NCBI RefSeq assembly: GCF_053078305.1
Contig: NZ_CP166879.1
Reading direction: 5' to 3' (one strand)
DNA: 64,000 nucleotides
The translations under genes were made by a program, and so were the position numbers. Position 1 is the stretch's first letter. Each line of letters opens with the position of its first letter. The notes beneath the pieces were generated by a model. The model was not told the origin of the DNA, ran no database searches, and saw only the letters and a program-made list of their open reading frames with translations. Positions 13,328-54,034 of this stretch are shown here, in pieces.

Positions 13328-13344
13328 TTCTGCTTTTCAAAACC

Positions 13345-13382
13345 GCCTGTTTTTCTTGTCATGTGTTGTCAGAAAAACAGGC
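13345..13382. terminator. Inverted repeat (12-bp arms gcctgtttttct / agaaaaacaggc) between convergent narV and the 403-aa gene; possible bidirectional terminator
   Basis: Perfect 12-bp arms with a 14-nt loop, flanked by T/A runs. Confidence 0.45.
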
Positions 13383-13391
13383 TTTTCAACC

Positions 13392-14603
13392 TTAATGATT
13401 ATCTTCAAACTCTTCCAAAACATATTGAGCATGAAATTGAATACAGGGCCAGGATGAAACTAAACCAGCGCGAGCAGTGGGTACTTCATTGGCGGTGATG
13501 GTGCAAAACCCTCTTCCTGGTGCCATTTCTTTTGCTATGGCTTCAACCAGCTCTGGATGATGACTAAGGACAAACTCTAACGGGGTGTAATCTAAGGGTA
13601 AATGACGTCCGTGGTCCCGAAATGCCAGATATGGAGCTGTTACTCCACGAAGCAAAATTTCTACAGGGAGCTGGGAAATGCGTTCTACCAATAAATTCAT
13701 ATGCCCAAGCCGCGCTATAGCCGCTGCAGCCCAACAGCGGTTACTCCCATCGGCTGTTTGATCGTCCAGCAGGCTTGTCAAAACAGCAATCACATCCTCA
13801 TTAGATTCATTAATTTCTGCAATCAATTTACAGGCATTCCATGCTTTGTCTGCATTTTTAACTTCTTGCAGCAAAGCAGGTAACGCCAGTTGACCTAGTT
13901 GTTTGAGTAATACTTCGTAATCGTCTAAAAGTAGACCCGGCGTTTTTCTGCCAAATATTTGCGCGATTAATTCTGCTATCCGTGCTTGTGAAGGCAAACT
14001 TTTCAGATATTGCCTCTCCTGTTCAGCCTGAGAATATTGAGGAAAATATTGCAATATTTGTTTTTTTGTCAGACTTAACGGGATCAACTCACCAACCTCA
14101 TCAGAGGCTATGGCGATAAAGTTTTTCTCCACTACCCCTTCACGTAAGAGTTGTAGTCGTGCTTTTTTGGCTGCTTTCGGAAAAACACGCAGGAATTGCG
14201 CGTACACCTCATACCAGGCATCAAATGTTCCATTAATAGCAGCGAACTCATGGCATTCATTAGCCCATTGTTCGCATTCTTCGTTAGGTTCATCATTGTA
14301 CTTATGGTCCGCAGGCGACCAGCGTAAGTCCTGTGTGAGTTTTTCTACGTTTTGTGTAAATCCATTTTTCTGATAAGCAGTAACAATAGAGGCCAGGCTT
14401 TCCTCAGTGCCAACTGCCAGACAAGGCCAGTCAATGATGTCCCCATCCCCATAAAAACAATGAAACATGGCACCATAGATATGTTGGCATGGGTGTTCCT
14501 GATGTATATGTTTAACGGAAGCTACCATGTAATTAATGGCAGCCGTTTCCATCCCTTTCCAGTCAAATTGTACTTGCTTCATAAAGCGGTCCGTGTAAGG
14601 CAA
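13392..14603 (-). CDS. Hypothetical protein, 403 aa, cytoplasmic, function unknown; low-GC gene inserted between narV and yddE
   Basis: Long clean ORF with no signal peptide or TM segments; about 45% GC versus roughly 52% for the flanks; I do not recall a gene at this position in K-12. Confidence 0.6.
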   Translation of the reverse strand: MPYTDRFMKQVQFDWKGMETAAINYMVASVKHIHQEHPCQHIYGAMFHCFYGDGDIIDWPCLAVGTEESLASIVTAYQKNGFTQNVEKLTQDLRWSPADHKYNDEPNEECEQWANECHEFAAINGTFDAWYEVYAQFLRVFPKAAKKARLQLLREGVVEKNFIAIASDEVGELIPLSLTKKQILQYFPQYSQAEQERQYLKSLPSQARIAELIAQIFGRKTPGLLLDDYEVLLKQLGQLALPALLQEVKNADKAWNACKLIAEINESNEDVIAVLTSLLDDQTADGSNRCWAAAAIARLGHMNLLVERISQLPVEILLRGVTAPYLAFRDHGRHLPLDYTPLEFVLSHHPELVEAIAKEMAPGRGFCTITANEVPTARAGLVSSWPCIQFHAQYVLEEFEDNH

Positions 14604-14718
14604 TATAGAGAGTTAACCATTTTATCCTGATAGTTATTTCAACATGACTTGCCAAGGATTAATTCAGAAAAGTGCCCTAAACAGGCTATGATAGTTCTCC
14701 AGTCACAGGAGAACGTTA

Positions 14719-17298: not shown

Positions 17299-17526
17299 TT
17301 ACATGCTGTAACCAGGTTTCTTTATCAAAGCCTCCATTTGGGGCGCGATTTCGGCATCCCAGATAGCTTGCCATGATTCTGGTTGAATCTGCTGTAGAGA
17401 AATGCTTATCGAGCTATCTTTACTGTTCAGATGGCGAATAATAACGTCGGTAATATCTGCAGCAAGTGCTGCTTTTTGTTGTTCGTCCAGTTCACGCGGA
17501 AAACATTTAATGTCGATGTGCGGCAT
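17299..17526 (-). CDS. pptA: Tautomerase PptA (4-oxalocrotonate tautomerase family)
   Basis: Begins [33 protein letters not shown] (N-terminal Pro after Met); about 75 aa. Confidence 0.85.
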
Positions 17527-17606
17527 GATTGTGCTCCTTTTGAAAGATGTCAGTAAAATTAACACACATTGTGAATGTCGTATGTCCGGTGATGCGTTTT
17601 TACGAC

Positions 17607-18594
17607 AATAATGCCAGGGCAAGATTACGAAAGCCTTCTCCCCGCAAGGACTGACGCCAGGTAGTTTCTGTCCATGGCTGCTTTTCGCATCTTACGTCTT
17701 AACCCTGCCTTGAATACCTTATCATTCGTCAAAATATTAATAGCAATGTGCCGTATCCCTGAAAATAATTCTGCTGCATTTCCTCTTCTTATTTTGCAGT
17801 CGTCTTCATTCATTACCACGTCCAGACGCCAGTGCAGCTTATTCTCCACGTGCCAGTGGTTTCGGATTGCTGTGGCGAACTTCTCTGCGGTTAAATCAGC
17901 AGAACTGATATAATATCTGACCGTCATTTCTGGCTCTTTCTTTTGTTCTGCTATTATTGAGCGAAATGAGACTGCCATGCATAATTTCTTCAGCCCTTTC
18001 CATTCAAACGTGAAATCAATAAGTTCATCAGGGATATCGCAGACAATATGGAGACGGATTTTAATGACATGAATCGCTCCCCTGCGGCGACTCTTGTCAT
18101 AAGAGTGCCGGAGCGTTTTTCCATCAATTGCAATGACGTCTTTATCATCTGAAGAATGGCAGTCACGCATCCAGTTAATAAAGCACTCGTGAAATTTTGC
18201 AGGACTGATACAGGATACAACTCTGGCAATGGTATCGTGAACAGGAATACCATTTTCAAAATCACCATATTGCTTCAAAAAATCGAGATGTGTTTCCCCA
18301 AAATCCTCTATATCTTCCCAACCTTCTGCACCAGAAACAACGGCACAAATAATCAACAGTAGAATATCCGATAATTTATGTTCCACTTTCCAGGCTTGTC
18401 TGTAATCGGGGATAATAGAAATATGTTCCATCAATTTTTTAAGTTCCATTTTGTTTCCTTAATTATGTAAGGAGTATTTGATCATGTATAAGCAATAAAA
18501 AACAGCTTTAGGTAATGAGGAACATATCAATTTTTAAACATAAAATGCGAATTATTTAGTACAAAAAGTGTACTTCCGATGATCTTTCCCTGCC
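17607..18594 (-). mobile_element. H-repeat (ISAs1-family) element, copy A, with internally deleted transposase
   Basis: Ends defined by where similarity to copy B (24395–25377) and to the remnant at 30421–30577 starts and stops. Confidence 0.6.
17625..18449 (-). CDS. H-repeat-associated protein / ISAs1-family transposase with an in-frame internal deletion (274 aa instead of about 378 aa)
   Basis: [32 protein letters not shown] ... matches the H-rpt protein (YdcC-like); about 100 central residues are missing between ...AIHVIK and IRLHIVCD... Confidence 0.8.
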
Positions 18595-18862
18595 ATTAAA
18601 TAATGTCTTATTTGACCTTGCCAACATACAACAAAATAATTGAAATATATTCAAAATTAATTTAAACATTCATCAGGCGTCCTTTTCTAAAAAACCTAAT
18701 CATTTAATGGTTAAATTACAATCAAACAAACAAAGTAAACTGGAATTATAGTTGTGGTGCACTTCACGATTTTAGCATTCTTGCTCCTACATTTATACTC
18801 TCTGCCGCGGAAATTTGTTCTCGAAACTTAACTAAACCCAATCAATCATCCTTGCCTTATCG

Positions 18863-19366
18863 TTACTTGAATTTATCAAGACATTTATCATTGCTGACAC
18901 TTTCAATATTTATATGATATACAGTTCCTGTGTTTGAGATATATACTTCCTTAAGCTTATCAGTTTTACTCTCATTATTATAAAAGTAGCCCCCGATAAT
19001 TTTATTCTTCTTTGATATATAAGTGACAGTGTCAGTATGAACTCCACCATTTATTGTCATAATGAATGAGGCATCCAAGTTCATCGTACTTTCCCCCTTA
19101 AAATATATTTTACCATTAGAAATCACTTTGGTCTCAGAAACACCGTTAGGCTCGTCATTACTAATTAATATAAGTAAATCTACCATTTCGGATTTTTTAT
19201 CTCTTTCTTTATAACCACCAATATCATCCAGGATATTATTTGACACTTTTCCACAAAGCATCACTGAGTAATTATTCAAATTTTTGAGTTGAGAGCACTT
19301 TGCCACAAAAGAGAATGAAATAAATATCAAACCTACCGAAATGATTATTGTTTTTTTAAAATTCAT
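18863..19366 (-). CDS. Putative immunity protein for the upstream effector; secreted/periplasmic (signal peptide)
   Basis: 167 aa, hydrophobic N-terminal signal sequence, AT-rich; starts 4 nt after the effector stop. Confidence 0.55.
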   Translation of the reverse strand: MNFKKTIIISVGLIFISFSFVAKCSQLKNLNNYSVMLCGKVSNNILDDIGGYKERDKKSEMVDLLILISNDEPNGVSETKVISNGKIYFKGESTMNLDASFIMTINGGVHTDTVTYISKKNKIIGGYFYNNESKTDKLKEVYISNTGTVYHINIESVSNDKCLDKFK

Positions 19367-19370
19367 TGTT

Positions 19371-21449
19371 TTAAAGAATCCTTATGTAATTAAGTGGAGG
19401 TGTTATTTCATCATTCAATACATACCAAGAATGCTCAAATGCTGGCCAACGCACTAAATCGAAGCCATCTGCTGCTGGGTTTATTCGCCGTGTAACTTCT
19501 CTGGCATCTGACAAACTACATCCTTTATCCGCCCAATAATTAACGCCTAAACTACCACTAGGTGTCAATCGATGGCTTACCATTATGTATTTTTGCTTAC
19601 TTGCCCAAAAGTATCCCCCGGCATCGCAAGAAAAATAGGCATTTTCAACTGGGAGTTGGTTATTGGGTTCTGTAGTAAAAAAATCATCATCTGACGGATT
19701 TCTATACTTTCCATAATTTCTATAATTCTCACGACCAGTTAGATGTATGGTACCTCTGCCTTTAAATCTTGCACCATCACCAACAACATTATTTCCAAGC
19801 TTAAGTCCCTGTTCTGTTCCTGGCTCATACATATCAAAATAACTCGAATCACCATTCTCTATAAAAGACGCAAATCTGCCTGTTTCTCTCGCCATCTGAC
19901 CGAAATAATGCGCAATCCGCAATGGGGTTGTAATTAAGTACTTCCTTAGTGACTTTGACAGTTCATTTTTCAACCCTGCAGGTCTTATCACCTCACCACT
20001 GCTATTTTGTCCTTGGCTAGTAATCCGCTCAATTAGAGTGTCTTTACTTAATGGTCTTGTAAGTTCTGATGTCATGGGATAAGCATTTTGATAACGTCTT
20101 ACCACACTTATAATATCATTTTCTCCTAACCACCCACATTTCCTGAAATGTGCAATAAACTGCCTGGGATCAAAATGCCATACACGCCTGGCAGGTAACG
20201 GATTATCTACCAAACAAAGCGCCTTACAGTGTTCTATCAGCAAATCCAGGTCAGGCTCTGTCATCGGCTTACTCAATACGTCATTGGGTGATTTCAGCCA
20301 CTCAAACCGTGATTCCACGGTGGCGCTGTCCCATTCTAGCGGAAAATGACAAATCATCCGACTTAGGTCATTGCGGGTTGTACACAGGATTGTTGGTGAA
20401 TTGCACTGGCTGTTGGTGTCCGCATCATCGTTCACCAGTTTCCACCCTGTCCAGTGTGGAAAATCACCGTCGCTGTAAACCCTGATATCTCTCGCCCCTA
20501 AGTTAACAACGCCTTTACCCTGTGGCGTATTGATTGTTCGCCACAGCGGCGCATCCGCCGGGACTAATTCTTCATATTCTGTATTAACAACCCGACCAAA
20601 ACGCAGCATCTCATAACCGGCACTTGGGCTTTTCGGATAGAGTTGCAGCGCGTAGGAATAGAGATTGTATTCATAATCCTTACCATCAGCATTAATCAAG
20701 GGAGAACCTACTTCAGTATAGGTATCACTCAGCACTTCATGCTGCTGACGCGTCACCATCGTACAATTGCCTTTATCAAAACTCATTGTGACATACAATG
20801 GCACGCTGGTTCTTTGTACCGGACTGTTGTTCGCAAGCGAGTTTTCTTCCGGCATGTCCCCATAAATCGGTGTTCCGGCAGGGAGATAAAAATGACTATC
20901 ACCGTAAACCACATCAGTTCGTCCATCTTTATTCAGGTCTGTTTCCGGTGATATTCTTCCTGTGATTTTCTGAATGTTTTCATCATCACAAAAAATCTGA
21001 AAATGAAAGGCGTTCTGTCCGTCCACCATCCCTGCTGCACCAACCGGTTCTTTCCGGTATAGCGTGTTTCCCGGCTGCACATTACTGTCAATGCTTCTCA
21101 GGTGCATATATAATGAGTAATAGACGATTTTACCCTCTTCTCCACTACCGATTTCTGTTTCATGTTTTATCAGAACATAGCCTTTATCCGTAACTCCGTT
21201 ATAATTTAACGGAGGAACTGTATTTTCCGCTGGTTCTGGCTGGCGTATTGAAATAACCTTCCCATCGGCAATACACCTAACAGTCTCTGACAGATTGCCG
21301 TTCAAATGAACTCCACCATGCCAAGAACGACCGCTATTCATTGGGAAATTTCTTTCTGGATCAACAGACATCATTCTGTTTACCCAGTCAGAGTCTTTTT
21401 CAGTGTCTATATGCGCATGCAATATTGGAGGGCTGATTATCATTATCAA
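19371..21449 (-). CDS. Putative T6SS cargo effector, 692 aa: N-terminal LytM/M23-like domain and C-terminal GH19/lysozyme-like domain (peptidoglycan hydrolase candidate)
   Basis: N-terminal motifs WHGGVHL ... GYVLIKHE ... YYSLYMHL resemble degenerate M23 motifs; C-terminal FKGRGTIHLTGRENYRNYGKY and GGYFWAS resemble GH19 signatures; immediately downstream of vgrG. Confidence 0.6.
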   Translation of the reverse strand: MIMIISPPILHAHIDTEKDSDWVNRMMSVDPERNFPMNSGRSWHGGVHLNGNLSETVRCIADGKVISIRQPEPAENTVPPLNYNGVTDKGYVLIKHETEIGSGEEGKIVYYSLYMHLRSIDSNVQPGNTLYRKEPVGAAGMVDGQNAFHFQIFCDDENIQKITGRISPETDLNKDGRTDVVYGDSHFYLPAGTPIYGDMPEENSLANNSPVQRTSVPLYVTMSFDKGNCTMVTRQQHEVLSDTYTEVGSPLINADGKDYEYNLYSYALQLYPKSPSAGYEMLRFGRVVNTEYEELVPADAPLWRTINTPQGKGVVNLGARDIRVYSDGDFPHWTGWKLVNDDADTNSQCNSPTILCTTRNDLSRMICHFPLEWDSATVESRFEWLKSPNDVLSKPMTEPDLDLLIEHCKALCLVDNPLPARRVWHFDPRQFIAHFRKCGWLGENDIISVVRRYQNAYPMTSELTRPLSKDTLIERITSQGQNSSGEVIRPAGLKNELSKSLRKYLITTPLRIAHYFGQMARETGRFASFIENGDSSYFDMYEPGTEQGLKLGNNVVGDGARFKGRGTIHLTGRENYRNYGKYRNPSDDDFFTTEPNNQLPVENAYFSCDAGGYFWASKQKYIMVSHRLTPSGSLGVNYWADKGCSLSDAREVTRRINPAADGFDLVRWPAFEHSWYVLNDEITPPLNYIRIL

Positions 21450-21590
21450 TAGTCCTTATTAAGCTTATAAAACATGTAACGAGTATGAATTATTCATTCA
21501 CAGAGCATCTCTGCTTAGAAAGCAGAAAATCACAGTATTATTGTATTATTACTACCGTCATCCGTTATCTTTATCTGAATGATTATCCCA

Positions 21591-23737
21591 CTACGAGAAC
21601 ATGAACTTCACTCTGGTCTCATCATTACCGATATCATCATCAGTATTACTATCCGTATCATTAGTGACTAAAGTGTTCAGGACAGTGGGTTGCAGTGTCG
21701 GTACCGGTGTCCCCGGACTCCCCCCACCATTAAGATTTATCTTCGGCCCCACTATATCCACGCCGCCCGGCTGAATAACGATAAACGAGCCACCCACCTT
21801 CAGGCTTATCCGGCTGCTGCTCTCCAGCACGATATCCCCGTCCACCTTTATCCCCAGCGCGCCACTCACCTTCCTCGCCAGGTCCCCCTTCACCACCAGG
21901 CTGTGTTTCCCCTCCACCAGACTGATATGGTTCCCCGTCGTCTTATGCTCCTGCTTCCCTTCCACCGTCACTTTACGGTCGTTTCTGACGTACAGACCGT
22001 CATCGTGACTCACGCTCACCGTCCGGTCATTCGTCACCTTCAGAGTCTGGTCATTACGTACTGTGATACGCCGGTCGTTCGCCACCGTGATACTCTGGTC
22101 GTGGCCCCCTCTTTTTTTGTACCGACCTGAACCGTCTGGCCCTTCACCACCGTTATCTTCTGGTCGTTACCAATGGTTTCCGTGTGGTCATGCTTCACGT
22201 CCGTCGTCCGGTCGTTGAGCACTTCCGTATCCATGTTCTTCTGCGCATGGATATACACCTGCTCATTACTGGTGGCGTCTTCAAACCGCAGCTCGTTAAA
22301 TCCGCTTCCTTTATAGGTTTTTGACCGGATGGTCATCTGCGTCTTCGTTCCCGGCAGGTCGCCCGGCGAACGGTTGTCCTCATGGTACGTCCGCCCCATG
22401 ATTATCGGCTGGTCCGGGTCGCCGTTCAGGAAGTCCACTATCACCTCCTGACCCACCCGCGGTATCGCCAGATTACCGAACCCCGGCCCCGCCCACGCCT
22501 GCGATACACGCACCCAGCATGAACTCGCCTCCGTCATCCCGTGATAACGGTCCCAGTGGAACTTCACCCGTACCCGGCCATGTTCATCGCAGAAGATTTC
22601 CTCTCCCGCAGGCCCGGTGACAATGGTGCTCTGTGGCCCGTCCACCTTCGGTTTGCTTTGCAGCCGTGGACGCCACGTCCGGTCTGCCGGTATCACCTCT
22701 AACTGATTTCCCAGTGTGGTTCCTCTCCCCTGGCTGCCGTGCAACGCCTGCGGCTGGCTTCCTGACAGTATGCTCTGTACCACCTGCCATTCACGGTTCA
22801 GCATCTTCTGCGGATGCCCCGTCAGCGTAAACCGCGTTCCCGGCCACAGCTTCGGTGAATTACTCTGCCCTGTGGCCTTTTCCGCATCACTGCGCAGGCT
22901 GTCCATCTGATACAGCGTGAAATCCTTGCCGTGCTGCTCATCCTTGAACCTTCCCGGATAATCAAATATCTCGTACTGCGCGTGCTGTCCGTTCAGCCTC
23001 TCACCCTGCTGTTCGTATATCCCCGGCCAGTCCGGCACCTTAAACGTGTAATCCTGACTCTGCACCGACGACGGGCGGACATGCGCCTCATAACGGAACA
23101 TACTGAGACACTCCGTCTCCGCTCCTGCCGATGTGTCCGGGTTAAACGGAAGCTCTCCCGCCTGTGACAGCCCCGCCACATCGTCGCACAGCGTCAGCTT
23201 CTGCTCCGGGCTGTCCGCCGCAAACCGCTCAAAGAAGAAAATCCCCTCCTCCGCCCACAGCCGGGACAGAAACGCCAGGTCGCTCTCTCCGTACTGGACA
23301 CAGAACTCCCGCGCCGGATGGTCCTCATAAAACAGCGGCGTCCACTCCGTGACGCCGTTCTCGTTCAGTAACGTGGCCGATATCGTCCGGATATCCTGCT
23401 GCTGAAAAATACGAAAGTTCTGCCGCAGCCCGCACCGCCATAACGGCGGCTCAATACGCAGGTGATAACGCATCTGCCAGCCGTTGTTCTCCTGCATGCC
23501 AAAGCCCGCCACCACGCCAGTGACATAACGCAGCGGAATGACGCCCTGCCAGATGGTCAGCGTTGCGTTCTTCTCCAGCAGCATCTCCGCCGTCTGCATA
23601 AAAGAGTCGCTGGCAACATCCACACTCATCACAAACGGATAAGACTGGTTCTGGATTAACCTGAAATTCACCACTGCAAAGGTGTCCGGCTCCTGGCCGT
23701 CAACCTCCAGCGTAAAGCGAAGACCTTTTAAGGACAT
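21591..23737 (-). pseudogene. vgrG: vgrG (T6SS spike protein), copy A, disrupted by a 1-nt deletion in a homopolymer (C5 on + strand at 22105–22109); ORFs 22040..23737 and 21591..22085 are one gene
   Basis: Conserved VgrG motifs LRFTLEVDG, GLRQNFRIFQ, GPQS.IVTGPAGEEIFCDEHGRVRVKFHWDRY, NLAIPRVGQEVIVDFLNGDPDQPIIMGRTYH; reading through the G-run restores ...KKEGGHDQSITVANDRRITV... as in copy B. Confidence 0.8.
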
Positions 23738-24180
23738 AAATACCTCTCTGGTATATCAGCCTATATTTACCGTGCCGCCACCAATAACCACGCCGCCGCA
23801 GTCAATGGCATCACCGGTTCTGGCGGCGGGCAGGCCGTCAATAAAGACGGTTGAAGAGCCTCTGGCGATTTTTCGGGGATGAGGTGGATGCTTCGGTTTA
23901 GCATGCGGCGTCGGCGGATCTCCCTGACGGGCTGCGGGGAGACCATCGATAAAAACGGTGGATGACCCGGCGGTGATGACGGTCTCGTAATAACCGTCGT
24001 GCTGAGTGCCTTTGTCGGTGAGTTTGGCTGCTAAAGGCATAATTCCTCCTGTTCAGAATTTCTACAGCAGCAGGTTTCAAAAATCCGGAGAAATATTCAA
24101 CGAAACATTAATCACTTCACCGGATATTCTGACACGTACCTTCACTAGTCTATTTAAGTAATACAAATTGTTGGCGTGTA
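22128..24180 (-). repeat. Duplicated PAAR–vgrG 5' segment, copy A (paralogous to 28368–30420, high but not perfect identity)
   Basis: Near-identical nucleotide stretches including the leader upstream of PAAR (taattcctcctgtt(c/a)agaatttctacagcagcaggtttcaaaaatccggag...). Confidence 0.85.
23756..24040 (-). CDS. PAAR-repeat protein (T6SS spike tip), 94 aa
   Basis: Two GLPAAR(Q/T)GD motifs; directly upstream of vgrG. Confidence 0.8.
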   Translation of the reverse strand: MPLAAKLTDKGTQHDGYYETVITAGSSTVFIDGLPAARQGDPPTPHAKPKHPPHPRKIARGSSTVFIDGLPAARTGDAIDCGGVVIGGGTVNIG

Positions 24181-24394
24181 ATACCCCATTCTCCTTTCAT
24201 TATCTTTGCCTTTAAAACAGAAAGTTCTTGAAATATATATTTAAGGAAAAAACCACGATAAACACCACAAGGATAATATAAATCACCAAGTTATCGAAAA
24301 TTTAAAAAATCACGCGTCAGATCTGATAAAAAATAGGCTATCACATGTAACTCCTGGGCGATCTCGCAAAAATTAAATTATAAAAATACATGAC

Positions 24395-25377
24395 GCAGGG
24401 CAAGATTACGAAAACCCGCTCCCCGCAAGGACTGACGTCAGGTAGTTTCTGTCCATGGCTGCTTTTCGCATCTTACGTCTTAACCCTGCCCTGGATACCT
24501 TATCATTCATCAAAATATTAATAGCAATGTGCCGTATCCCTGAAAATAATTCTGCTGCGTTTCCTCTTCTTATTTTGCAGTCGTCTTCATTCATTACCAC
24601 GCCCAGACGCCAGTGCAGCTTATTCTCCACGTACCAGTGGTTTCGGATTGCTGTGGCGAACTTCTCTGCGGTTAAATCAGCAGAACTGATATAATATCTG
24701 ACCGTCATTTTGGGATTTTTCTTTTGTTCTGCTATTATTGAGCGAAATGAGACTGCCATGCATAATTTCTTCAGCCCTTTCCATTCAAACGTGAAATCAA
24801 TAAGTTCATCAGGGATATCGCAGACAATATGGAGACGGATTTTAATGACATGAATCACTCCCCTGCGGCGACTCTTGTCATAAGAGTGCCGGAGCGTTTT
24901 TCCATCAATTGCAATGACGTCTTTATCATCTGAAGAATGGCAGTCACGCATCCAGTTAATAAAGCACTCGTGAAATTTTGCAGGACTGATACAGGATACA
25001 ACACTGGCAATGATATCGTGAACAGGAATACCATTTTCAAAATCACCATATCACTTCAAAACATCGGGATGTGTTTCCCCAAAATCCTCTATATCTCCCA
25101 GTCTTATGCACCAGAAATAACGGCGCAAATAGTTAACAGATAGAATATCTGGCAATTTATGTTCCACTTTCCAGGCTTGCCTGTAATCGGGGATAACAGA
25201 AATATGTTCCATCAATTTTTTAAGTTCCATTTTGTTCTCCTTAATTATGTAAGGGGTATTTGATCATGTGTAAGCAATAAAAAACAGCTTCAGGCAATAA
25301 GGAATATCTCAATTTTCAAACATAAAATGTGAATTATTTAGTACAAAAAGTGTACTTCTGATGATCTTTCCCTGCCC
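24395..25377 (-). mobile_element. H-repeat (ISAs1-family) element, copy B, degraded
   Basis: Homologous to copy A over its whole length, with the same internal deletion plus extra substitutions and indels. Confidence 0.6.
24406..25231 (-). pseudogene. H-repeat/ISAs1-family transposase pseudogene (frameshifted N-terminal region; same internal deletion as copy A)
   Basis: ORF 24406..24951 encodes the C-terminal part ([20 protein letters not shown]...); the N-terminal [11 protein letters not shown]... lies in other frames near 25231. Confidence 0.7.
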
Positions 25378-25453
25378 TTGTTTATTAGGTATATACCATA
25401 AATACTGAGTATTTTATTGTGCTATTTGTTTATTAAAAATTTGCGAGCAATAA

Positions 25454-25933
25454 TTAAAGATTGCCATCTTCATTGCCGACGAAATAAATATCAAATGAAC
25501 ACTCCAATCCAAGATTAGCCATTATTTTCATCTGCTCAGGCCATAAAGTTGGCCCACCGTGCCAATTCAATGATCTCCAGGTACAGTCAATACCCATTGA
25601 AATATTTTCTAATGCTTGCAATTTTGCAATATTTGATGATTTAGGTCCAAGTTTGTGAAGTAGCCAATCCAGATGTTCTCGAATATCTTTCGAGTTCACT
25701 AGATTTTCTGACGAGAGCATCCAATATGAATTTTTTGCATATCTTTTCTTTCCCGATAGAGTAATAATTTCATCTCCTTTTATATTAATTGATGTTGGCT
25801 CAAGTTCTAAGTGAATACTTATTTCATTAGGGTGAGTATTACCTGTGTAAATCAAGAGGCTAGCATAGCACTCATCACAACTTGGATATTCATGAGATAT
25901 CGGGGTAAGCCTTGATTGTATATTCTTAATCAT
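25454..25933 (-). CDS. Putative immunity protein for effector B; cytoplasmic, 159 aa
   Basis: No signal peptide; start overlaps the effector stop (translational coupling); AT-rich. Confidence 0.5.
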   Translation of the reverse strand: MIKNIQSRLTPISHEYPSCDECYASLLIYTGNTHPNEISIHLELEPTSINIKGDEIITLSGKKRYAKNSYWMLSSENLVNSKDIREHLDWLLHKLGPKSSNIAKLQALENISMGIDCTWRSLNWHGGPTLWPEQMKIMANLGLECSFDIYFVGNEDGNL

Positions 25934-27063
25934 AAATAATCCTCTATGTTTCCTAAAATATTTCCTGAGTCATCAATATAATCACCATTATCAAGTATTC
26001 GACCATGGTGATCACCTCGTAAGCGTAAATCTTTTTTCAACTTTTCTAAAGCTTTCCCCCATTCTCTCCTGTTAATATTTTTACCAAAAAATTCATTTAA
26101 CTCCCTGGCAGTTCTTGCCTCAAGAGTATTACCTCCAGTTTGTAATACTCTCGGAACTCTTCCCGCAGCGCCAACGCTTGGAGGAACAGGAATAGGCAAT
26201 CCATTTGCATCCAGCACAATTTTAGCACCGCTCCTCCCCATTCTGCCAACCGATTTTATTGCAAACTTCGCTGAAAACTTGACCAAACCTTTCACCAGTG
26301 CTCCAACCCCGGTCATAAGTTCCAGCCATGGCTCAACCTCCATCGCCATTGCTTGGGTTTCATTGGCAGGTTTCAACAATGGCTCTCTAGGATCAATAGT
26401 TTCCATTACCTCCCTGTTGGTCTCATTCGCCCGCTCCATAATTTGGGTATCCATCCCCAACCCTCTCGCCAGAGCAATATTACTTTCCATTTGGGCAATG
26501 TCATTTTGCATCTGACCTTTGGCAATCAATGCACCCAACATATACCAGCCATTAATAAATGCCTTGCCTAATCCTATCATTGCATCTGCTTCTTGCTTTT
26601 TGGACTCAAGCTCAAACTCTTGCTGTTGTCTTTGCAGTTCCAGATACCTGGCCCAAAGCGATGATTCTTTAACAGGTATTATCTGATTTGGCAGGTTTGT
26701 CTGGGTATACAGTTTTCCAACAGTATTATCATTATTCATGGCAACCAGCGAAAGATTCCTGGCTACCGGCTTTCCCTTGCACTTTATATGATCCACGCCT
26801 GTCAGTATCCGGCAGTCACCGCTGCCCAGACTGGTGCCAGAACTGACACCTTTCCCGGCATTACTTCGTGTACCTGCAATAATACAGTCCACGGTCAGTA
26901 CTGGATTGCCCCGTGCCCTGACATTGCTGATATAAATTTTCTCATGTGTCAGGTCCTGAAAGCTGTCAAACGGCACTATCGCATCACCAACCTTGCAGAC
27001 ATCAGGCGCAATACATATCGCAACGTACTTCGATTCACGACAACCAATATGATTTTCAGCCAT
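25930..27063 (-). CDS. Putative T6SS effector, 377 aa: N-terminal PAAR-like (DUF4150-type) domain fused to a C-terminal toxin domain of unassigned family
   Basis: N-terminus ...YVAICIAPDVCKVGDAIVPF... resembles the PAAR-like DUF4150 signature; downstream of vgrG and an adaptor-like gene, followed by an overlapping small ORF. Confidence 0.55.
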   Translation of the reverse strand: MAENHIGCRESKYVAICIAPDVCKVGDAIVPFDSFQDLTHEKIYISNVRARGNPVLTVDCIIAGTRSNAGKGVSSGTSLGSGDCRILTGVDHIKCKGKPVARNLSLVAMNNDNTVGKLYTQTNLPNQIIPVKESSLWARYLELQRQQQEFELESKKQEADAMIGLGKAFINGWYMLGALIAKGQMQNDIAQMESNIALARGLGMDTQIMERANETNREVMETIDPREPLLKPANETQAMAMEVEPWLELMTGVGALVKGLVKFSAKFAIKSVGRMGRSGAKIVLDANGLPIPVPPSVGAAGRVPRVLQTGGNTLEARTARELNEFFGKNINRREWGKALEKLKKDLRLRGDHHGRILDNGDYIDDSGNILGNIEDYL

Positions 27064-27997
27064 GAGGTCCCCTCTGCTCCGTCGTCAAAACAATACGTTG
27101 TGGAAGAGAATCCACGGGGAGCGTTAAGCGCCAGAGTAGTGTTAGTTGCTCATCGTCTGTGTGGATGGTCAGTGTGTCAGCCAACAATGGGCGCAGTTCT
27201 ACGTTTTTATCAGAGCGGTAAAACAAATACGCCAATAGTCTAATATCTGGAAGGAAACAAATTTGTTCCATTTTAGAAGGTAATAGGCCGTTCAATATAA
27301 TTTTTTCATTGCCAATTAAATAACCATCGTATTGTTGTTCTGGTGGAGAATAATTCATGAATGCAAAATCGAATTCATCTGGATAAAAAGGTTGAACAGT
27401 CTTTTGCCACTGTTCTGTAAAACCTCTGGCATAGCGCAATCGTGAAGGCCAGCTACGGCAAATAGCTCCTGGTGAGGCAGATAACTGTGGAGCTGGACAG
27501 GGCGATTTATCGCCAAGCGTTATCAGGGAGGGAATAACAATGCCTACAGGATTAAATTCACTGGCTGACGCCAGTTCATGGCGTAACAGTACCCGATCAG
27601 TTAATTCAGGTTCGCTAAGTTGCCAGCGGTTAGATATATATTGCCATTGGCAAGGGCCACATATATCAAATTGGCGCTGAAGATTACCAACCTGTAAACT
27701 GGCCTGCCATCGAGTGGTTTCCCCGGTGGCATGCCATGCGTGTCCATTTAATAAAACATCTGCCCTGACTTTTCTGCAAACCAAATCGGTTGCTGTTTTA
27801 AGACTGCTGCTTTCCGGTTCGCCGTACCAGGAGTCGGTCATCAGTGGCAGTCGCTGCTCATCCGCAATCAGACAGAGACCGCCGCTATATGAAAAATCAA
27901 ATGTCTGATTAACTACCACTACTGTGAATAACTCACCATAATATCCCACTTTTTCGAACTGAAAGTGAGGTAAACCAGTTTCATTTTCAATATTCAT
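27056..27997 (-). CDS. Putative T6SS effector adaptor/chaperone (DUF2169- or DUF4123-like by position), 313 aa
   Basis: Lies between vgrG and the PAAR-like effector; overlaps the effector start by 8 nt; no recognisable catalytic motif. Confidence 0.4.
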   Translation of the reverse strand: MNIENETGLPHFQFEKVGYYGELFTVVVVNQTFDFSYSGGLCLIADEQRLPLMTDSWYGEPESSSLKTATDLVCRKVRADVLLNGHAWHATGETTRWQASLQVGNLQRQFDICGPCQWQYISNRWQLSEPELTDRVLLRHELASASEFNPVGIVIPSLITLGDKSPCPAPQLSASPGAICRSWPSRLRYARGFTEQWQKTVQPFYPDEFDFAFMNYSPPEQQYDGYLIGNEKIILNGLLPSKMEQICFLPDIRLLAYLFYRSDKNVELRPLLADTLTIHTDDEQLTLLWRLTLPVDSLPQRIVLTTEQRGPHG

Positions 27998-28012
27998 GTT
28001 AATTTCTCCAGA

Positions 28013-29977
28013 TTAATCCAGATCAATATCTGCGCCGAAAATATTGATTTTATCTTTTCCTTCAATCTGGATACTTTTACCATTGAGAATGATAGTACCG
28101 TCCTTATTCATTTTCAGTAAGCATTCACCGACTTTAATGGTGAGGCTGTTGGTAACTGTCAGGCTGTAATCTTCTCCAACTTTAATATCCTGGGATTTCA
28201 CGACTTCTTCGGTATCTTTTCCTATTATCTTACTGATTTGATCGTTCCCTACATCCTTGTGACGATCGTGGGTAACATCCAGCCGCTGATCGTTTTGTAC
28301 CGTAATGGTCTGGTCATTCGCCACTGTCACTTTCTGGTCATGACCACCTTCCTTTTTGCTCCCCACATTCACCGTCTGGCCCTTCACCACCGTTATCTTC
28401 TGGTCGTTACCAATGGTTTCCGTGTGGTCATGCTTCACGTCCGTCGTCCGGTCATTCAGCACTTCCGTATCCATGTTCTTCTGCGCGTGAATATAGACCT
28501 GTTCCTTATCTGTGGCGTCCTCAAAGCGCAGCTCGTTAAATCCGCTTCCTTTATAGGTCTTCGACCGGATGGTCATTTGTGTCTTCGTTCCCGGCAGGTC
28601 GCCCGGCGAACGGTTGTCTTCATGGTATGTGCGTCCCGTCACAATGGGCTGGTCCGGGTCGCCGTTCAGAAAGTCCACTATCACCTCCTGACCCACACGC
28701 GGTATCGCCAGATTACCGAACCCCGGCCCCGCCCACGCCTGCGATACACGCACCCAGCATGAACTCGCCTCCGTCATCCCGTGATAACGGTCCCAGTGGA
28801 ACTTCACCCGTACCCGGCCATGTTCATCGCAGAAGATTTCCTCTCCCGCAGGCCCGGTGACAATGGCGCTCTGTGGCCCGTCCACCTTCGGTTTGCTTTG
28901 CAGCCGTGGACGCCACGTCCGGTCTGCCGGTATCACCTCTAACTGATTTCCCAGCGTGGTTCCTCTCCCCTGGCTGCCGTGCAGCGCCTGCGGCTGGCTT
29001 CCTGACAGTATGCTCTGTACCACCTGCCATTCACGGTTCAGCATCTTCTGCGGATGCCCCGTCAGCGTAAACCGCGTTCCCGGCCACAGCTTCGGTGAAT
29101 TACTCTGCCCTGTGGCCTTTTCCGCATCACTGCGCAGGCTCTCCATCTGGTACAGCGTGAAATCCTTGCCGTGCTGCTCGTCCTTGAACCTTCCCGGATA
29201 ATCAAATATCTCGTACTGCTCCAGCTGTCCGTTCAGGTTCTCACCCTGCTGCTCATACATCCCCGGCCAGTCCGGCACCTTAAACGTGTAATCCTGGCTC
29301 TGCACCGACGACGGGCGGACATGCGCCTCATAACGGAACATACTGACACACTCCGTCTCCGCTCCTGCCGATGTATCCGGGTTAAACGGAAGCTCCCCCG
29401 CCTGTGACAGCCCCGCCACATCGTCGCACAGCGTCAGCTTCTGCTCCGGGCTGTCCGCCGCAAACCGCTCAAAGAAGAAAATTCCCTCCTCCGCCCACAG
29501 CCGCGCCAGAAACGCCAGGTCCGACTCCCCGTACTGCACACAGAACTCCCGCGCCGGATGGTCCTCATAATACAGCGGCGTCCACTCCGTGACGCCGTTC
29601 TCGTTCAGTAACGTGGCCGATATCGTCCGGATATCCTGCTGCTGGAAGATACGGAAGTTCTGCCGCAGCCCGCACCGCCATAACGGCGGCTCAATACGCA
29701 GGTGATAACGCATCTGCCAGCCGTTATTCTCCTGCATGCCAAAGCCCGCCACCACGCCGGTGACATAACGCAGCGGGATGACGCCCTGCCAGATGGTCAG
29801 CGTCGCCTTCTTCTCCAGCAGCATCTCCGCCGTCTGCATAAAAGAGTCGCTGGCAACATCCACACTCATCACAAACGGATATGACTGGTTCTGGATTAAC
29901 CTGAAATTCACCACTGCAAAGGTGTCCGGCTCCTGGCCGTCAACCTCCAGCGTAAAGCGCAGACCTTTTAAGGACAT
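28013..29977 (-). CDS. vgrG: VgrG (T6SS spike protein), copy B, intact, 654 aa, with a C-terminal tail distinct from copy A
   Basis: Same conserved VgrG motifs as copy A; C-terminus ...KVGEDYSLTVTNSLTIKVGECLLKMNKDGTIILNGKSIQIEGKDKINIFGADIDLD differs from copy A. Confidence 0.88.
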   Translation of the reverse strand: MSLKGLRFTLEVDGQEPDTFAVVNFRLIQNQSYPFVMSVDVASDSFMQTAEMLLEKKATLTIWQGVIPLRYVTGVVAGFGMQENNGWQMRYHLRIEPPLWRCGLRQNFRIFQQQDIRTISATLLNENGVTEWTPLYYEDHPAREFCVQYGESDLAFLARLWAEEGIFFFERFAADSPEQKLTLCDDVAGLSQAGELPFNPDTSAGAETECVSMFRYEAHVRPSSVQSQDYTFKVPDWPGMYEQQGENLNGQLEQYEIFDYPGRFKDEQHGKDFTLYQMESLRSDAEKATGQSNSPKLWPGTRFTLTGHPQKMLNREWQVVQSILSGSQPQALHGSQGRGTTLGNQLEVIPADRTWRPRLQSKPKVDGPQSAIVTGPAGEEIFCDEHGRVRVKFHWDRYHGMTEASSCWVRVSQAWAGPGFGNLAIPRVGQEVIVDFLNGDPDQPIVTGRTYHEDNRSPGDLPGTKTQMTIRSKTYKGSGFNELRFEDATDKEQVYIHAQKNMDTEVLNDRTTDVKHDHTETIGNDQKITVVKGQTVNVGSKKEGGHDQKVTVANDQTITVQNDQRLDVTHDRHKDVGNDQISKIIGKDTEEVVKSQDIKVGEDYSLTVTNSLTIKVGECLLKMNKDGTIILNGKSIQIEGKDKINIFGADIDLD

Positions 29978-30420
29978 AAATACCTCTCAGACATATCAGC
30001 CTATATTTACCGTACCGCCACCAATGACCACACCACCACAGTCGATGGCATCACCGGTTCTGGCGGCGGGCAGGCCGTCAATAAAGACGGTTGACGAGCC
30101 TCTGGCGATTTTACGGGGATGAGGGGGATGCTTCGGTTTAGCATGCGGCGTCAGCGGATCTCCCTGGCGGGCTGCGGGGAGACCATCGATAAAAACGGTG
30201 GATGACCCGGCGGTGATGACGGTCTCGTAATAACCGTCGTGCTGGGTGCCTTTGTCGGTGAGTTTGGCTGCTAAAGGCATAATTCCTCCTGTTAAGAATT
30301 TCTACAGCAGCAGGTTTCAAAAATCCGGAGAAATATTCAACGAAATATTAATCACTTCACCGGATATTCTGATACGTACCTTCACTGGTCTATTTAAGTA
30401 ATACAAATTGTTGGCGTGTA
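28368..30420 (-). repeat. Duplicated PAAR–vgrG 5' segment, copy B
   Basis: Paralogous to 22128–24180. Confidence 0.85.
29996..30280 (-). CDS. PAAR-repeat protein, copy B, 94 aa
   Basis: Near-identical to 23756..24040; two PAAR motifs. Confidence 0.8.
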   Translation of the reverse strand: MPLAAKLTDKGTQHDGYYETVITAGSSTVFIDGLPAARQGDPLTPHAKPKHPPHPRKIARGSSTVFIDGLPAARTGDAIDCGGVVIGGGTVNIG

Positions 30421-30577
30421 TTAAGTTCCATTTTGTTCTCCTTAATTATGTAAGGAGTATTTGATCATGTATAAGCAATAAAAACAGCTTCAGGAAATAA
30501 GGAATATCGCAATTTTTAAACATAAAATGCGAATCGTTCAATACAAAAAAGCAGCGTTGCGTAATCTTTCCCTGATT
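30421..30577 (-). mobile_element. H-repeat left-end remnant (about 155 bp; transposase ORF deleted after the first codons)
   Basis: ttaagttccattttgttctccttaattatgtaaggagtatttgatcatgtataagcaataaaaa... matches the 5' ends of copies A and B. Confidence 0.65.
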
Positions 30578-30819
30578 AAATACGCTACCGCCCTACTCTG
30601 ATGACATGATCTGCACTGCACTATCATATCGACATGTTTCTCTACATGCGAAGAGATGTTTTATTTTCGGATTATATTAAATTGATATTTCATATAAAAA
30701 ACGAAATTACATCAATCATATAAATAATTGTATCAACTTTAATTACTATTCATAGCAAACAAATGGATATCCAGTTAACTACGCCAGTGATTCATTAACA
30801 TTAACCTCCGGCATTATTG

Positions 30820-31437
30820 TTAAATAATGACATTCCTTTTTAATACTTCTTGTAATTTCGGTAACTGACATACAGCATCAGCAATCGCACTGATATTTGT
30901 GGCATTATCCTGAAACCATTCATGCCCAGGCCCCCATGTGCGCATAGTGCAAAGATAACAGTCCACCAGCGTTAGTTGCTCACCAAACGCATAAGGTTCA
31001 GCGGTCAATTGTGAATTCAGCCAGATATAAAGCGATTTACGATATTCAATAACATTCTTCTTTAACTGTTCGGGTGCGTCAGGAGCCCAACGCTCAGGGT
31101 AATCGGCGAAAGTGAATGTTGGATAGACATTAGCAACCAGCCAGACCAATAGCCGTTGAAACTGCTGACGTTCGGCGCGCCCAACCGGTGGCGCAAGGTC
31201 CGGGCGACGATCGAGAACCATCAATGCAATCGCCGCTGTCTCCGTCATAATCTCGTCATTTTCCAGCGCCAGTGTCGGAATCTGACACAACGGGTTCAGG
31301 GTTTTCAATAACTCGCGTGAAGTTCCCTCGTGGTCAAAACCACTGACATCAACGAACTGATAAGGAATATCAGCCAGTGTTAGCATCAGCTCACTGATTG
31401 TAGAGCCCCATCCGGGTACGCCATACACCTTAATCAT
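30820..31437 (-). CDS. yncG: Glutathione S-transferase-like protein YncG
   Basis: 205 aa, GST N-terminal thioredoxin-like fold signature (MIKVYGVPGWGS...). Confidence 0.85.
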   Translation of the reverse strand: MIKVYGVPGWGSTISELMLTLADIPYQFVDVSGFDHEGTSRELLKTLNPLCQIPTLALENDEIMTETAAIALMVLDRRPDLAPPVGRAERQQFQRLLVWLVANVYPTFTFADYPERWAPDAPEQLKKNVIEYRKSLYIWLNSQLTAEPYAFGEQLTLVDCYLCTMRTWGPGHEWFQDNATNISAIADAVCQLPKLQEVLKRNVII

Positions 31438-31703
31438 ATGCCCCTCACAATCTTTTAAAGATTAAGTGTAGGACAGTACACAGGTTAACCAGCAAAAGGA
31501 TTTGTCATTTTTTCGTCAGTTGTATTAATCCCCTTCAGGATTGTAAGGGGATGTTTTGCATCGTTTATCGATAACGGGTAGGATGCTGCGCCGATAGTTT
31601 TATACCCATAAAGAATAATGGTGATAACTATCATCGCCAGGATGAATAAACATTGTTCATGGCAACTTATATGACTTTTTCATTAAAGCAATCAGGGAGA
31701 GCA

Positions 31704-40121: not shown

Positions 40122-40295
40122 TTAAAACAGTGAAAACAACAGCGCCACCGGGAAACTCATCGGCCATGTTGCCCCCACCAGAAAGGCGCTTAAGAAACGG
40201 ATGCGTTTCTTATCGTGAGAAAGAAACCAAGTGATAAGAAATGCGATTGCTGCCATAACCGCATAAAAAACAAGCATGTGTTGATAGAGAGACAT
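40122..40295 (-). CDS. ortT: Orphan membrane toxin OrtT (YdcX), 57 aa
   Basis: MSLYQHMLVFYAVMAAIAFLITWFLSHDKKRIRFLSAFLVGATWPMSFPVALLFSLF; the ORF track starts upstream at 40343. Confidence 0.8.
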   Translation of the reverse strand: MSLYQHMLVFYAVMAAIAFLITWFLSHDKKRIRFLSAFLVGATWPMSFPVALLFSLF

Positions 40296-47759: not shown

Positions 47760-48197
<438 letters not shown>

Positions 48198-48221
48198 GTC
48201 ATTAACCTTTTTAATTGGCGA

Positions 48222-54027: not shown

Positions 54028-54034
54028 AGGTCAA

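Follow-up and report, generated by a model that had tools for sequence, protein, structure and literature searches.

Orphan toxin/immunity arrays of the Rhs and CDI type, and the auxiliary clusters of V. cholerae, have a conserved 5′ segment that serves as a recombination substrate, while the toxin–immunity part 3′ of it is variable. The RhsE/vgrE locus of E. coli was reportedly described by Wang, Zhao and Hill in 1998, and VgrG2/Atu3641/Tde2/Tdi2 of A. tumefaciens is an example of the VgrG–DUF2169–DUF4150 (PIPY) arrangement. PIPY effectors are known from P. aeruginosa and V. parahaemolyticus (VP1415; PMC11883445), and Tvp class I comprises spike-tip effectors of the DUF2169–DUF4150 kind (PMC13373197); the DUF2169–DUF4150 mechanism has been published (PMC11883445, PMC13373197). 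WHIX effectors (Fridman et al., 2025, PMC12135965), e.g. V. alginolyticus WP_005373349.1 and A. jandaei Awe1, most commonly carry a ‘chitinase-like’/GH19 hydrolase as cargo, and a model in which they are loaded by the VgrG tail has been published. According to the summary in PMC6730261, vgrG islands with VT effector modules occur in E. coli (Ma et al., 2018).

We analysed a 64,000-nt stretch of an E. coli chromosome (contig NZ_CP166879.1; ‘the window’), in which the pptA–yncG interval carries two PAAR–vgrG–cargo–immunity modules in tandem on the minus strand, module A next to pptA and module B next to yncG (Table 1). The initial annotation had placed the modules at an RhsE-type site, and indeed the same interval in K-12 holds yncH–rhsE′–ydcD–yncI′–ydcC, the RhsE remnant, instead of PAAR–vgrG modules; the yncG-side flank is 98.7% identical to that of K-12. 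The array shares this chromosomal site, and the presence of H-repeats, with the RhsE/vgrE locus. As in the E. coli vgrG islands, auxiliary vgrG–effector–immunity sets lie outside a main cluster; in contrast to the islands, and as far as their summary goes, the cargoes here differ from the VT1 amidase and VT5 lysozyme-like proteins that were tested. Profile and repeat searches recovered the features named in the initial annotation where it had put them, well above chance, with the exception of 21591–23737 as one ORF. All four PAAR and VgrG genes score above the profile cutoffs (124 bits for NF033420; 186 bits for TIGR03361). Promoter and terminator scans did no better than on shuffled sequence. 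We conclude that modules A and B are variants of already described module types, and we think it likely that two auxiliary (‘orphan’) T6SS spike–cargo modules form an array here at an RhsE/pptA–yncG hotspot, delivered and recombined as proposed below.

Table 1. Features of the pptA–yncG interval in window coordinates.
Feature	Position	Strand	Evidence and remarks
pptA, core-genome flank	17299..17526	−	NF002324, 156 bits; RefSeq annotation concordant
H-repeat copy 1, defective	17615..18597	−	NF033564, 245 bits (cutoff 70); 274-aa ORF at 17625–18449; deletion junction 18061/18062
Module A immunity gene, 167 aa	18863..19366	−	N-terminal signal-peptide-like segment MNFKKTIIISVGLIFISFSFVAKC
EffA, WHIX-type T6SS effector, 690–692 aa	19371..21443	−	domain, fold and motif matches
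vgrG-A pseudogene	21591..23737	−	1-bp deletion in G6 run; ORFs 22040–23737 and 21591–22085
Handle copy A	22047..24183	−	direct repeat of 28286–30423
PAAR-A, 94 aa	23756..24040	−	NF033420, 153 bits
H-repeat copy 2	24396..25379	−	312-bp internal deletion shared with copy 1; junction 24842/24843
Module B immunity gene, 159 aa	25454..25933	−	Pfam DUF4279, E 2e-18
EffB, 377 aa	25930..27063	−	DUF4150/PAAR-like (PIPY-type) N-terminus, C-terminal toxin domain
DUF2169 accessory/chaperone gene, 313 aa	27056..27997	−	Pfam DUF2169, E 3.5e-49; RefSeq annotation concordant
vgrG-B, intact, 654 aa	28013..29977	−	TIGR03361, 601 bits
Handle copy B	28286..30423	−	direct repeat of 22047–24183
PAAR-B, 94 aa	29996..30280	−	NF033420, 158 bits
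H-repeat stub, first ~155–160 bp	30421..30582	−	88% identity to K-12 H-repeat positions 1–155
yncG, core-genome flank	30820..31437	−	RefSeq annotation

Strain A16 carries a twin of the locus that is 99.9% identical, with flanks at 97.6–99.6%. No T6SS core genes are annotated in its equivalent of the window, in agreement with the earlier description of the modules as auxiliary or orphan. The genome-wide search for core genes that had been suggested, run on the twin, revealed a complete T6SS (tssA–M, two hcp and vgrG) at aspV, and the vgrG-B product is 87% identical to the VgrG of this main cluster. Extrapolating from A16, the window's own genome presumably has a T6SS core as well, and both modules would depend on core genes encoded elsewhere, as at aspV in the twin. 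None of the four genomes with the tandem array has the window's DUF4303 insert.

The 5′ part of each module, here called the handle, takes in 143 bp of upstream sequence, the PAAR gene and ~1.69 kb from the 5′ end of vgrG; each unit runs on from this conserved 1.7 kb into a module-specific vgrG 3′ end, cargo, immunity gene and a defective ISAs1 H-repeat. The handles are 94.8% identical across 2138 bp, with 111 positions differing, and the two PAAR proteins differ by one amino acid. The 5′ segments are thus conserved and the 3′ cargo divergent between modules, as first described, although ‘near-identical’ overstated the resemblance. Of 5426 genomes, 687 carry the handle, which occurs at 989 places and in at most five copies per genome. 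Each module ends in an H-repeat, and the third H-repeat end reported upstream is present as a stub joined directly to handle B. The two longer copies are 95.2% identical across 985 bp, and both lack, in frame, the same 312 bp from the interior of the K-12 ydcC H-repeat, indicating descent from one defective copy; with a frameshift and an internal stop in addition to this deletion, copy 2 is a pseudogene.

The initial annotation explained the array by tandem duplication of one PAAR–vgrG–cargo–H-repeat unit, after which one copy would have exchanged its cargo. The similar divergence of the handle pair and the H-repeat pair (94.8% and 95.2% identity), together with the common defective ancestor of the H-repeats, would fit such an origin. 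We nevertheless consider it unlikely, because the modules are found apart and in other company. Module B occurs at ≥99% identity beside a different partner, a VgrG–M35 module, in MS1170-type strains; module A, intact and yncG-proximal, lies beside a C39/M35 module in ECNB21-M121; and further combinations occupy the same locus in other strains. Each module is known elsewhere at ≥99% identity with another neighbour or alone, and in either order. Furthermore, SNP analysis showed the two window alleles alternating in blocks along the handles of different strains: that of the single-module strain 1504D004 is B-type at sites 3–1557 and A-type at 1727–2134. Separate occurrence and mosaic handles favour recombinational shuffling and assembly of pre-existing modules over local duplication and swapping, and the contrast between ~5% handle divergence and 99–100% cargo identity between strains suggests that old alleles were brought together, rather than that one was recently copied locally.

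The array is probably built, reshuffled and collapsed by homologous recombination that pairs one 2.1-kb handle with another, and one H-repeat with another. Mobilization of the modules as composite transposons by their flanking ISAs1 elements is hardly credible, even though ISAs1-family sequence bounds every module here and also lies at the cargo-region end of the twin's main T6SS cluster. Copies 1 and 2 both have a transposase gene shortened by 312 bp (104 aa), copy 2 is disrupted further and the third is a 160-bp stub; all have the same orientation, and homologous recombination, documented directly by SNPs, explains module exchange. As in Rhs/CDI and V. cholerae arrays, immunity genes that have been displaced are retained, as are 3′ stubs of effectors, the module A immunity gene (immA) being kept as an orphan in 134 genomes without EffA. 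Unlike in those arrays, the exchanged unit comprises the whole VgrG C-terminus and separate cargo genes, and the second homology arm is formed by defective IS elements.

EffA, named ‘M23 peptidase’ in RefSeq, belongs to the WHIX-type effectors as a divergent member and combines an N-terminal LytM/M23-fold domain containing WHGGVH with a middle region and a C-terminal GH19 domain at about residues 494–692. This ‘chitinase-like’ domain matches endolysin 9ms7 (E 7e-10) and PHROG endolysin families (E 5e-21), with catalytic residues E522 and E531 conserved, and an AF2 model of EffA (pLDDT 85) retrieved 9ms7 (TM 0.76) and LytM domains in Foldseek. WHGGVH conforms to the WHxxxH motif of WHIX effectors, and W43, H44 and H48 are invariant in 51 homologues. 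Region 1 matches that of the founding V. alginolyticus WHIX effector (E 4e-8; hhalign probability 96%), whereas region 2 was not detected against this founding member by BLAST or hhalign; the founding member also has a ~145-aa insert splitting the LytM-like part, which is contiguous in EffA. The EffA accession is absent from the published WHIX list, and in the published tree its subfamily sits on a long branch with sparse sampling. The full-length homologue P0130 (45% identity) is near-identical over its last 100 aa to WP_082107153.1, a member of that tree. The gene order is likewise that of WHIX effectors: EffA lies directly 3′ of a vgrG with a module-specific C-terminal tail, its C-terminal domain is a GH19 hydrolase, and a signal-peptide immunity gene follows 4 nt downstream of EffA.

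The RefSeq name ‘M23 family metallopeptidase’ raises the alternative that EffA is an active M23 endopeptidase in addition to a GH19 hydrolase. Its N-terminal fold, a weak Pfam M23 match (E 3.3e-4) and the invariance of H44, H48, H116 and H149 in the 51 homologues are compatible with this, but the HxxxD motif reads HGGVH, with His replacing Asp, the HxH motif reads AFH, lacking the first catalytic His, the structural neighbours include the non-catalytic LytM domains of EnvC and DipM, and a single immunity gene follows EffA. A second catalytic activity is therefore decidedly unlikely. As a WHIX-type effector, EffA would use its LytM-fold module to clamp the cognate VgrG at the C-terminal tail, and would cleave periplasmic peptidoglycan of the target with its GH19 domain. 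The immunity protein, predicted to be periplasmic from its signal-peptide-like N-terminus, would neutralize it; this protein has no match in Pfam, NCBIfam, PHROG or PADLOC.

In contrast to described WHIX effectors, the cognate vgrG of EffA is frameshifted, a lesion that the initial annotation missed. The segment it gave as one ORF is 2147 nt long, not a multiple of three, and thus comprises two ORFs: a G6 run, intact in other alleles, is 1 bp short (C5 on the plus strand, 22105–22109), dividing the gp27/gp5 body (565-aa ORF; TIGR03361, 593 bits) from a ~150-aa end portion that contains the module-specific tail. An intact 715-aa allele is found in JX21CE8. In addition to the window, 9 complete genomes carry the frameshift and 12 have in-frame G6; the tail occurs in 21 genomes, tracking the 19 that have full EffA, and is single copy in the twin. 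The deletion uncouples the VgrG-A body from the tail by which EffA would be loaded, so that EffA, and with it module A, is probably undeliverable; the module would survive mainly as an immunity gene.

Alternatively, both modules might be functional, with the G run acting as a phase-variable, slippage-prone switch that restores full-length VgrG-A in some cells or transcripts. The lesion is a single base in a G6/G5 homopolymer immediately 3′ of an A7 run, the frameshift is common to 9 complete genomes and the window, and neither EffA nor its immunity gene is disrupted (99.8–100% identity). Runs of five or six G are, however, short for efficient slippage, and in-frame and frameshift alleles fall on different sequence backgrounds (identity classes of 99.3% versus ≤98%), as expected of one inherited mutation rather than frequent switching. 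Moreover, IS2 lies between vgrG-A and EffA in two frameshift genomes, AHM8C160RI and AHM8C212RI, indicating ongoing decay. We regard a switch as very improbable, and prefer loss of function by an inherited mutation.

Module B is intact and encodes a VgrG, a DUF2169 chaperone and a DUF4150/PIPY-tipped effector. The initial annotation had put an adaptor, in brackets, in the common layout of the two units; module B alone has one. The order vgrG, DUF2169, DUF4150-tipped toxin, immunity gene is that of PIPY effectors, DUF2169 is the sole accessory gene, as in Tvp class I, and the toxin of EffB is fused C-terminally to the PAAR-like cap. The DUF4150/PIPY domain would cap VgrG-B with the help of the adjacent chaperone. 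In contrast to PIPY effectors, the EffB motif is degenerate, reading IVPF with one of the two prolines present, and its C-terminal toxin domain falls outside the described families.

Both effector/immunity pairs had been singled out as the most likely place for uncharacterised biology. This applies only to the toxin domain of EffB, as DUF2169/PIPY delivery and the WHIX class were both described in 2025. The domain spans ~75–94 aa (residues ~284–377), follows a linker common to an Rhs N-terminus, and matched no Pfam family or solved fold. It forms the very C-terminal end of a range of carriers, Rhs, DUF637/CdiA-like and PT-HINT proteins among them (330 clusters at 50% identity), and a DUF4279 gene lies directly downstream of it in all three unrelated contexts examined. 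DUF4279 is the FdL-Imm5 family (PMC9424270). Since the module B immunity protein has no signal peptide, it is predicted to be cytoplasmic, and the cytoplasm of the target is the most likely site of toxin action; that the activity is that of a small nuclease or RNase-like is our guess. A canonical PAAR gene, additional to the PIPY arrangement, also lies upstream of the same vgrG-B, providing a second candidate cap besides EffB.

The initial annotation had placed two tandem type VI secretion system (T6SS) modules between pptA and yncG, on the minus strand of this E. coli DNA, and domain content, gene order and database searches all bear this reading out. Both PAAR genes score far above the curated NCBIfam cutoff for T6SS PAAR proteins (NF033420; 153 and 158 bits against 124), as do both VgrG bodies for T6SS VgrG, or TssI (TIGR03361; cutoff 186). 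VgrG-B, at 601 bits, has an intact frame of 654 aa; VgrG-A, at 593 bits, has a broken frame and is a pseudogene member of the family. DUF2169, DUF4279, PAAR, Phage_GPD and gp5 domains were detected in the interval with Pfam. The interval is not that of K-12, which holds yncH-rhsE'-ydcD-yncI'-ydcC here instead. As first described, the window contains no T6SS core genes and, the accessory features listed in the table aside, its remainder consists of ordinary core genes. Islands carrying vgrG have long been known at this Rhs site, and both module types belong to classes described in 2025–26. The new points are a broken VgrG-A, the probable misnaming of EffA (the module A effector) together with a gap in the survey of WHIX secretion domains, population evidence for remodelling of the array through the conserved module 5' regions, and a widespread toxin domain paired with DUF4279.

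Coordinates of features in the window (nt)
Feature	Position	Strand	Remark
espR1 (T3SS leucine-rich-repeat effector) with neighbouring LRR pseudogene, ortT, hicAB, IS200/IS605 tnpA pseudogene with insQ/TnpB	about 3614-4870; 40122-40295; 47760-48398; 52819-54541		joint list; approximate, offset from A16 annotation
Insert between narI/narV and yddE	13330-14681		1.35 kb
DUF4303 ORF	13392-14603	minus	within the insert
Segment searched against complete genomes	17300-31500		both modules
H-repeat copy 1	17615-18597		312-bp deletion junction 18061/2
immA (module A immunity gene)	18863-19366	minus	
immA with last ~238 nt of EffA	18863-19604	minus	stub found in other genomes
EffA	19371-21443	minus	module A
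vgrG-A, two frames	22040-23737; 21591-22085	minus	previously one ORF, 21591-23737
Lesion in vgrG-A	22105-22109		C5; coding-strand G5
C5 and T7 runs	22105-22118		T7 is coding-strand A7
Handle A	22047-24183	minus	
H-repeat copy 2	24396-25379		312-bp deletion junction 24842/3
EffB	25930-27063	minus	module B
vgrG-B	28013-29977	minus	
Handle B	28286-30423	minus	
PAAR gene with 143-bp upstream region	29996-30423	minus	in 687 genomes
Third H-repeat (stub)	30421-30582		

End-to-end matches to the segment spanning both modules were found in four complete RefSeq genomes at 99.8–99.9% identity (A16, PS10-3, CM196106 and ETEC6335), and the entire arrangement was absent from the remainder of the 5426 genomes searched. 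In A16, which we use as a twin of the window's strain, the RefSeq gene order is pptA, ISAs1, a hypothetical protein, ‘M23 family metallopeptidase’, frameshifted vgrG and PAAR, followed by an ISAs1 pseudogene, DUF4279, a PAAR-like protein, DUF2169, tssI/vgrG, PAAR and yncG; our profile searches of the window agree with this annotation. Promoter and terminator scans stayed at the level of shuffled sequence (27 and 12 found, with 26.5 and 11.3 expected, respectively), and an Rfam search at gathering thresholds returned no RNA family anywhere in the 64 kb.

Self-comparison of the window revealed two pairs of repeats. The first is a ‘handle’ comprising 143 bp of upstream sequence, the PAAR gene and ∼1.69 kb of vgrG, whose two copies match over 2138 bp with 94.8% identity. 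The second is a pair of ISAs1-family H-repeats (985 bp, 95.2% identity), each with detectable transposase homology (245 and 135 bits; cutoff 70). Relative to the 1291-bp H-repeat of K-12 (ydcC), an identical internal stretch of 312 bp is missing from both copies, and because they share this deletion they must share an origin. Copy 2 carries a frameshift and a stop besides, while the third copy is a stub of only the first ∼155–160 bp of the element. None of the three copies in the interval is an intact full-length element; by sequence, the H-repeats are remnants of a single defective element rather than active insertion sequences.

Comparison with other genomes shows the same modules in different combinations at the same locus. 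Module A stands alone in JX21CE8, where it is intact, and in 1504D004, where it is frameshifted; intact module A accompanies a C39/M35 module in ECNB21-M121. MS1170, like many other strains, has module B beside a VgrG-M35 module; AHM8C160RI has B together with an A module that is split by IS2; and A30 has a variant of B with a remnant of A. Overall, cargo B is present in 120 genomes and complete cargo A in 19. The PAAR gene with its upstream region occurs in 687 of the 5426 genomes, at 989 places and up to five times per genome. Handle carriers commonly have arrays of several modules.

In order to compare handles between strains, each was typed at the 111 positions where the two handles of the window differ. 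In 1504D004, which has one handle, sites 3–1557 are B-type and sites 1727–2134 are A-type. This handle switches type once, and one crossover inside the handle therefore separates this strain from the tandem array. Deletion from such an array is the simplest direction for this event; the SNP data fit formation of the array by insertion as well. Finer mosaics were found in the handles of other strains. Cargo has also left traces of its removal, since 134 genomes without EffA retain, with ∼97% identity, immA together with the last ∼238 nt of EffA; in A21, for example, this stub has a different VgrG module on one side and a full-length ISEc1/ydcC on the other (locus L018, 7001–7741). Judged from these sequences, the orphan immA with its 238-nt effector stub is a footprint of cargo displacement.

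The paired handles had been read earlier as the outcome of a local duplication followed by cargo swapping. The combinatorial modules, mosaic handles and displaced immA stubs disfavour that history, and we favour recombinational shuffling of pre-existing modules. In such shuffling, the handles and the defective H-repeats would act as homology arms between which modules stack, exchange and collapse. The locus offers a clear natural example of the swapping of T6SS ammunition in E. coli, with strains that are one crossover apart visible in public genomes.

The region 21591–23737, previously annotated as a single vgrG ORF, is 2147 nt long and breaks into two frames. Alignment with the intact alleles of JX21CE8 and FDAARGOS_943 identified the lesion as the loss of one G from a G6 run, and the intact VgrG-A protein as one of 715 aa. 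Loss of one A from an A8 run, which would also give a plausible 715-aa product, was considered and is ruled out by the same alignment; the two runs lie only 2 bases (TC) apart. Among complete genomes, nine carry the frameshifted vgrG-A allele and twelve carry it in frame. The lesion lies within the handle, ∼60 nt short of its end and close to where module-specific sequence takes over.

EffA and many of its enterobacterial homologues are named ‘M23 family metallopeptidase’ in RefSeq, a name that is probably misleading. The match to Pfam M23 is weak (E = 3.3e-4). In the predicted structure (pLDDT 85) the N-terminal domain adopts a LytM/M23 fold; at the positions of the M23 motifs HxxxD and HxH, EffA reads HGGVH and AFH. 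EffA thus lacks the motifs of an active M23 metallopeptidase, the likeness being one of fold alone. The C-terminal third is a GH19-type endolysin-like domain, as judged by sequence (9ms7, E = 7e-10; PHROG endolysin families, E = 5e-21), by fold (Foldseek TM 0.76) and by two catalytic glutamates, E522 being invariant and E531 nearly so, which together identify a GH19-type peptidoglycan hydrolase.

The N-terminus reads SWHGGVHL...LYMHL...FHFQIF, and WHGGVH (residues 43–48) is invariant across 51 homologues. WHxxxH is the signature after which the WHIX secretion domain was named (PMC12135965). We rebuilt the sequence of the founding Vibrio alginolyticus member, WP_005373349.1, from the supplementary mmCIF file of that study; region 1 of EffA matched it by BLASTP (E = 4e-8) and by hhalign (probability 96%; residues 31–119 against 29–122), so that both motif and homology place EffA with WHIX region 1. 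No alignment to WHIX region 2 (founding member residues 271–476) was obtained by BLAST or hhalign with this single-sequence template. The genetic context is that of WHIX effectors: EffA adjoins vgrG, ends in a peptidoglycan hydrolase and is followed by an immunity gene whose product has a signal peptide, judged by eye from the sequence. Taken together, the N-terminal domain looks like a WHIX/LytM-fold loading module. The accession of EffA itself is absent from the published WHIX tree and list (PMC12135965). P0130, a homologue that aligns with EffA from end to end (45% identity, 100% of the length), has a last 100 aa that match WP_082107153.1 almost exactly; the latter belongs to the published tree and CLANS set, where its branch is long and thinly sampled (PMC12135965). 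This link supports region 2 in EffA indirectly. The EffA subfamily is incompletely captured by that survey. A Salmonella homologue with 55% identity (P0070) carries a precomputed match to PF28347.1, which is not in our local Pfam library and may be a newly added family covering this domain.

According to the model of the WHIX study (PMC12135965), the upstream VgrG is clamped by WHIX at its C-terminal tail. By analogy, the WHIX cavity of EffA would bind the tail of its cognate VgrG-A, and the two co-occur, the tail being found in 21 genomes and EffA in 19. The frameshift cuts this tail off from the body of the spike, and the twin genome has a single copy of the tail sequence; EffA is therefore probably stranded. 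The product of immA would still protect against relatives with an intact module A.

Module B has an architecture worked out in 2025–26: vgrG-B, a DUF2169 gene, a DUF4150-tipped effector and an immunity gene. DUF2169 proteins are chaperones that load ‘PIPY’ (DUF4150) caps onto VgrG (PMC11883445), and DUF2169 alone constitutes Tvp class I (PMC13373197). EffB carries an N-terminal DUF4150 domain (PF13665, E = 2e-10, residues 16–116); the DUF2169 gene lies directly upstream of it (E = 3.5e-49) and vgrG-B upstream of that. Residues 29–32 read IVPF where the PIPY motif (two prolines, then an aromatic residue) is expected, a degenerate form, and many homologues have PVPF. Residues 1–252 are similar to the N-terminal part of a T6SS Rhs structure (8qjc), and no transmembrane segment was found in EffB by Kyte–Doolittle analysis. 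By gene content, module B belongs to the DUF2169-dependent PIPY spike-tip class, and dependence of EffB on the DUF2169 protein for secretion and spike formation is predicted.

The last ∼75–94 residues of EffB form a separate, mobile toxin domain. Proteins with the same N-terminus as EffB bear other C-termini (PF14021, PF15532, PF15604 and others), and the C-terminal domain is itself found on DUF637/CdiA-like, Rhs, PT-HINT, PG_binding_1, pre-toxin TG and PAAR-like proteins of up to 3822 aa. An exhaustive search yielded 330 clusters at 50% identity, with the domain nearly always at the very end of its carrier (140 of 158 matches end within one residue of the C-terminus). The immunity protein of module B, of 159 aa, belongs to DUF4279 (FdL-Imm5), a family previously proposed to comprise immunity proteins (PMC9424270). 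A DUF4279 gene lies directly 3' of the toxin domain in the window and in three of three unrelated loci (one Rosenbergiella Rhs locus and two metagenome contigs), as is characteristic of a polymorphic-toxin C-terminal domain with cognate immunity.

The toxin domain has no Pfam match even at E ≤ 10, and across 56 aligned family members none was found at E ≤ 0.001; the few single-member matches at E ≤ 0.1 are to unrelated families. Ntox33 is paired with DUF4279 in a Salmonella Rhs protein (PMC13304343); at these thresholds neither the query nor the 56 members match the Pfam Ntox33 profile. Because the DUF4279 protein lacks a signal peptide, the toxin most probably works in the target cell's cytoplasm. 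From its invariant residues alone (of types Q, N, K, H, R and E), a small nuclease is plausible. The domain and DUF4279 constitute a widespread candidate effector–immunity family, and the size of the domain suits it to quick toxicity assays, target identification and structural work.

A complete T6SS is present at aspV in A16 (two hcp genes, tssA, B, C, E, F, G, H, J, K and M, icmH/tssL, tagH and vgrG), with its own DUF2169/DUF4150 cargo after vgrG. The VgrG of this main cluster shares 87% identity with VgrG-B, and over the first ∼530 residues the two hardly differ. From this twin we infer that the window's strain has a core cluster too. At its cargo end, the A16 main cluster (loci L007, 1–8440, and L008, 33848–41001) has its own DUF6484 and DUF2169 genes and two DUF4150/PAAR-like genes, and it ends in an ISAs1 pseudogene adjoining yafV; T6SS cargo in this genome is therefore bounded by H-repeats at two separate loci.

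Elsewhere in the window, the insert beside yddE is absent from K-12 and A16. Of 5426 complete E. coli genomes, just 4 contain it, and each of these lacks the tandem array. The insert encodes a DUF4303 protein of 403 aa (Pfam E = 2.4e-8).
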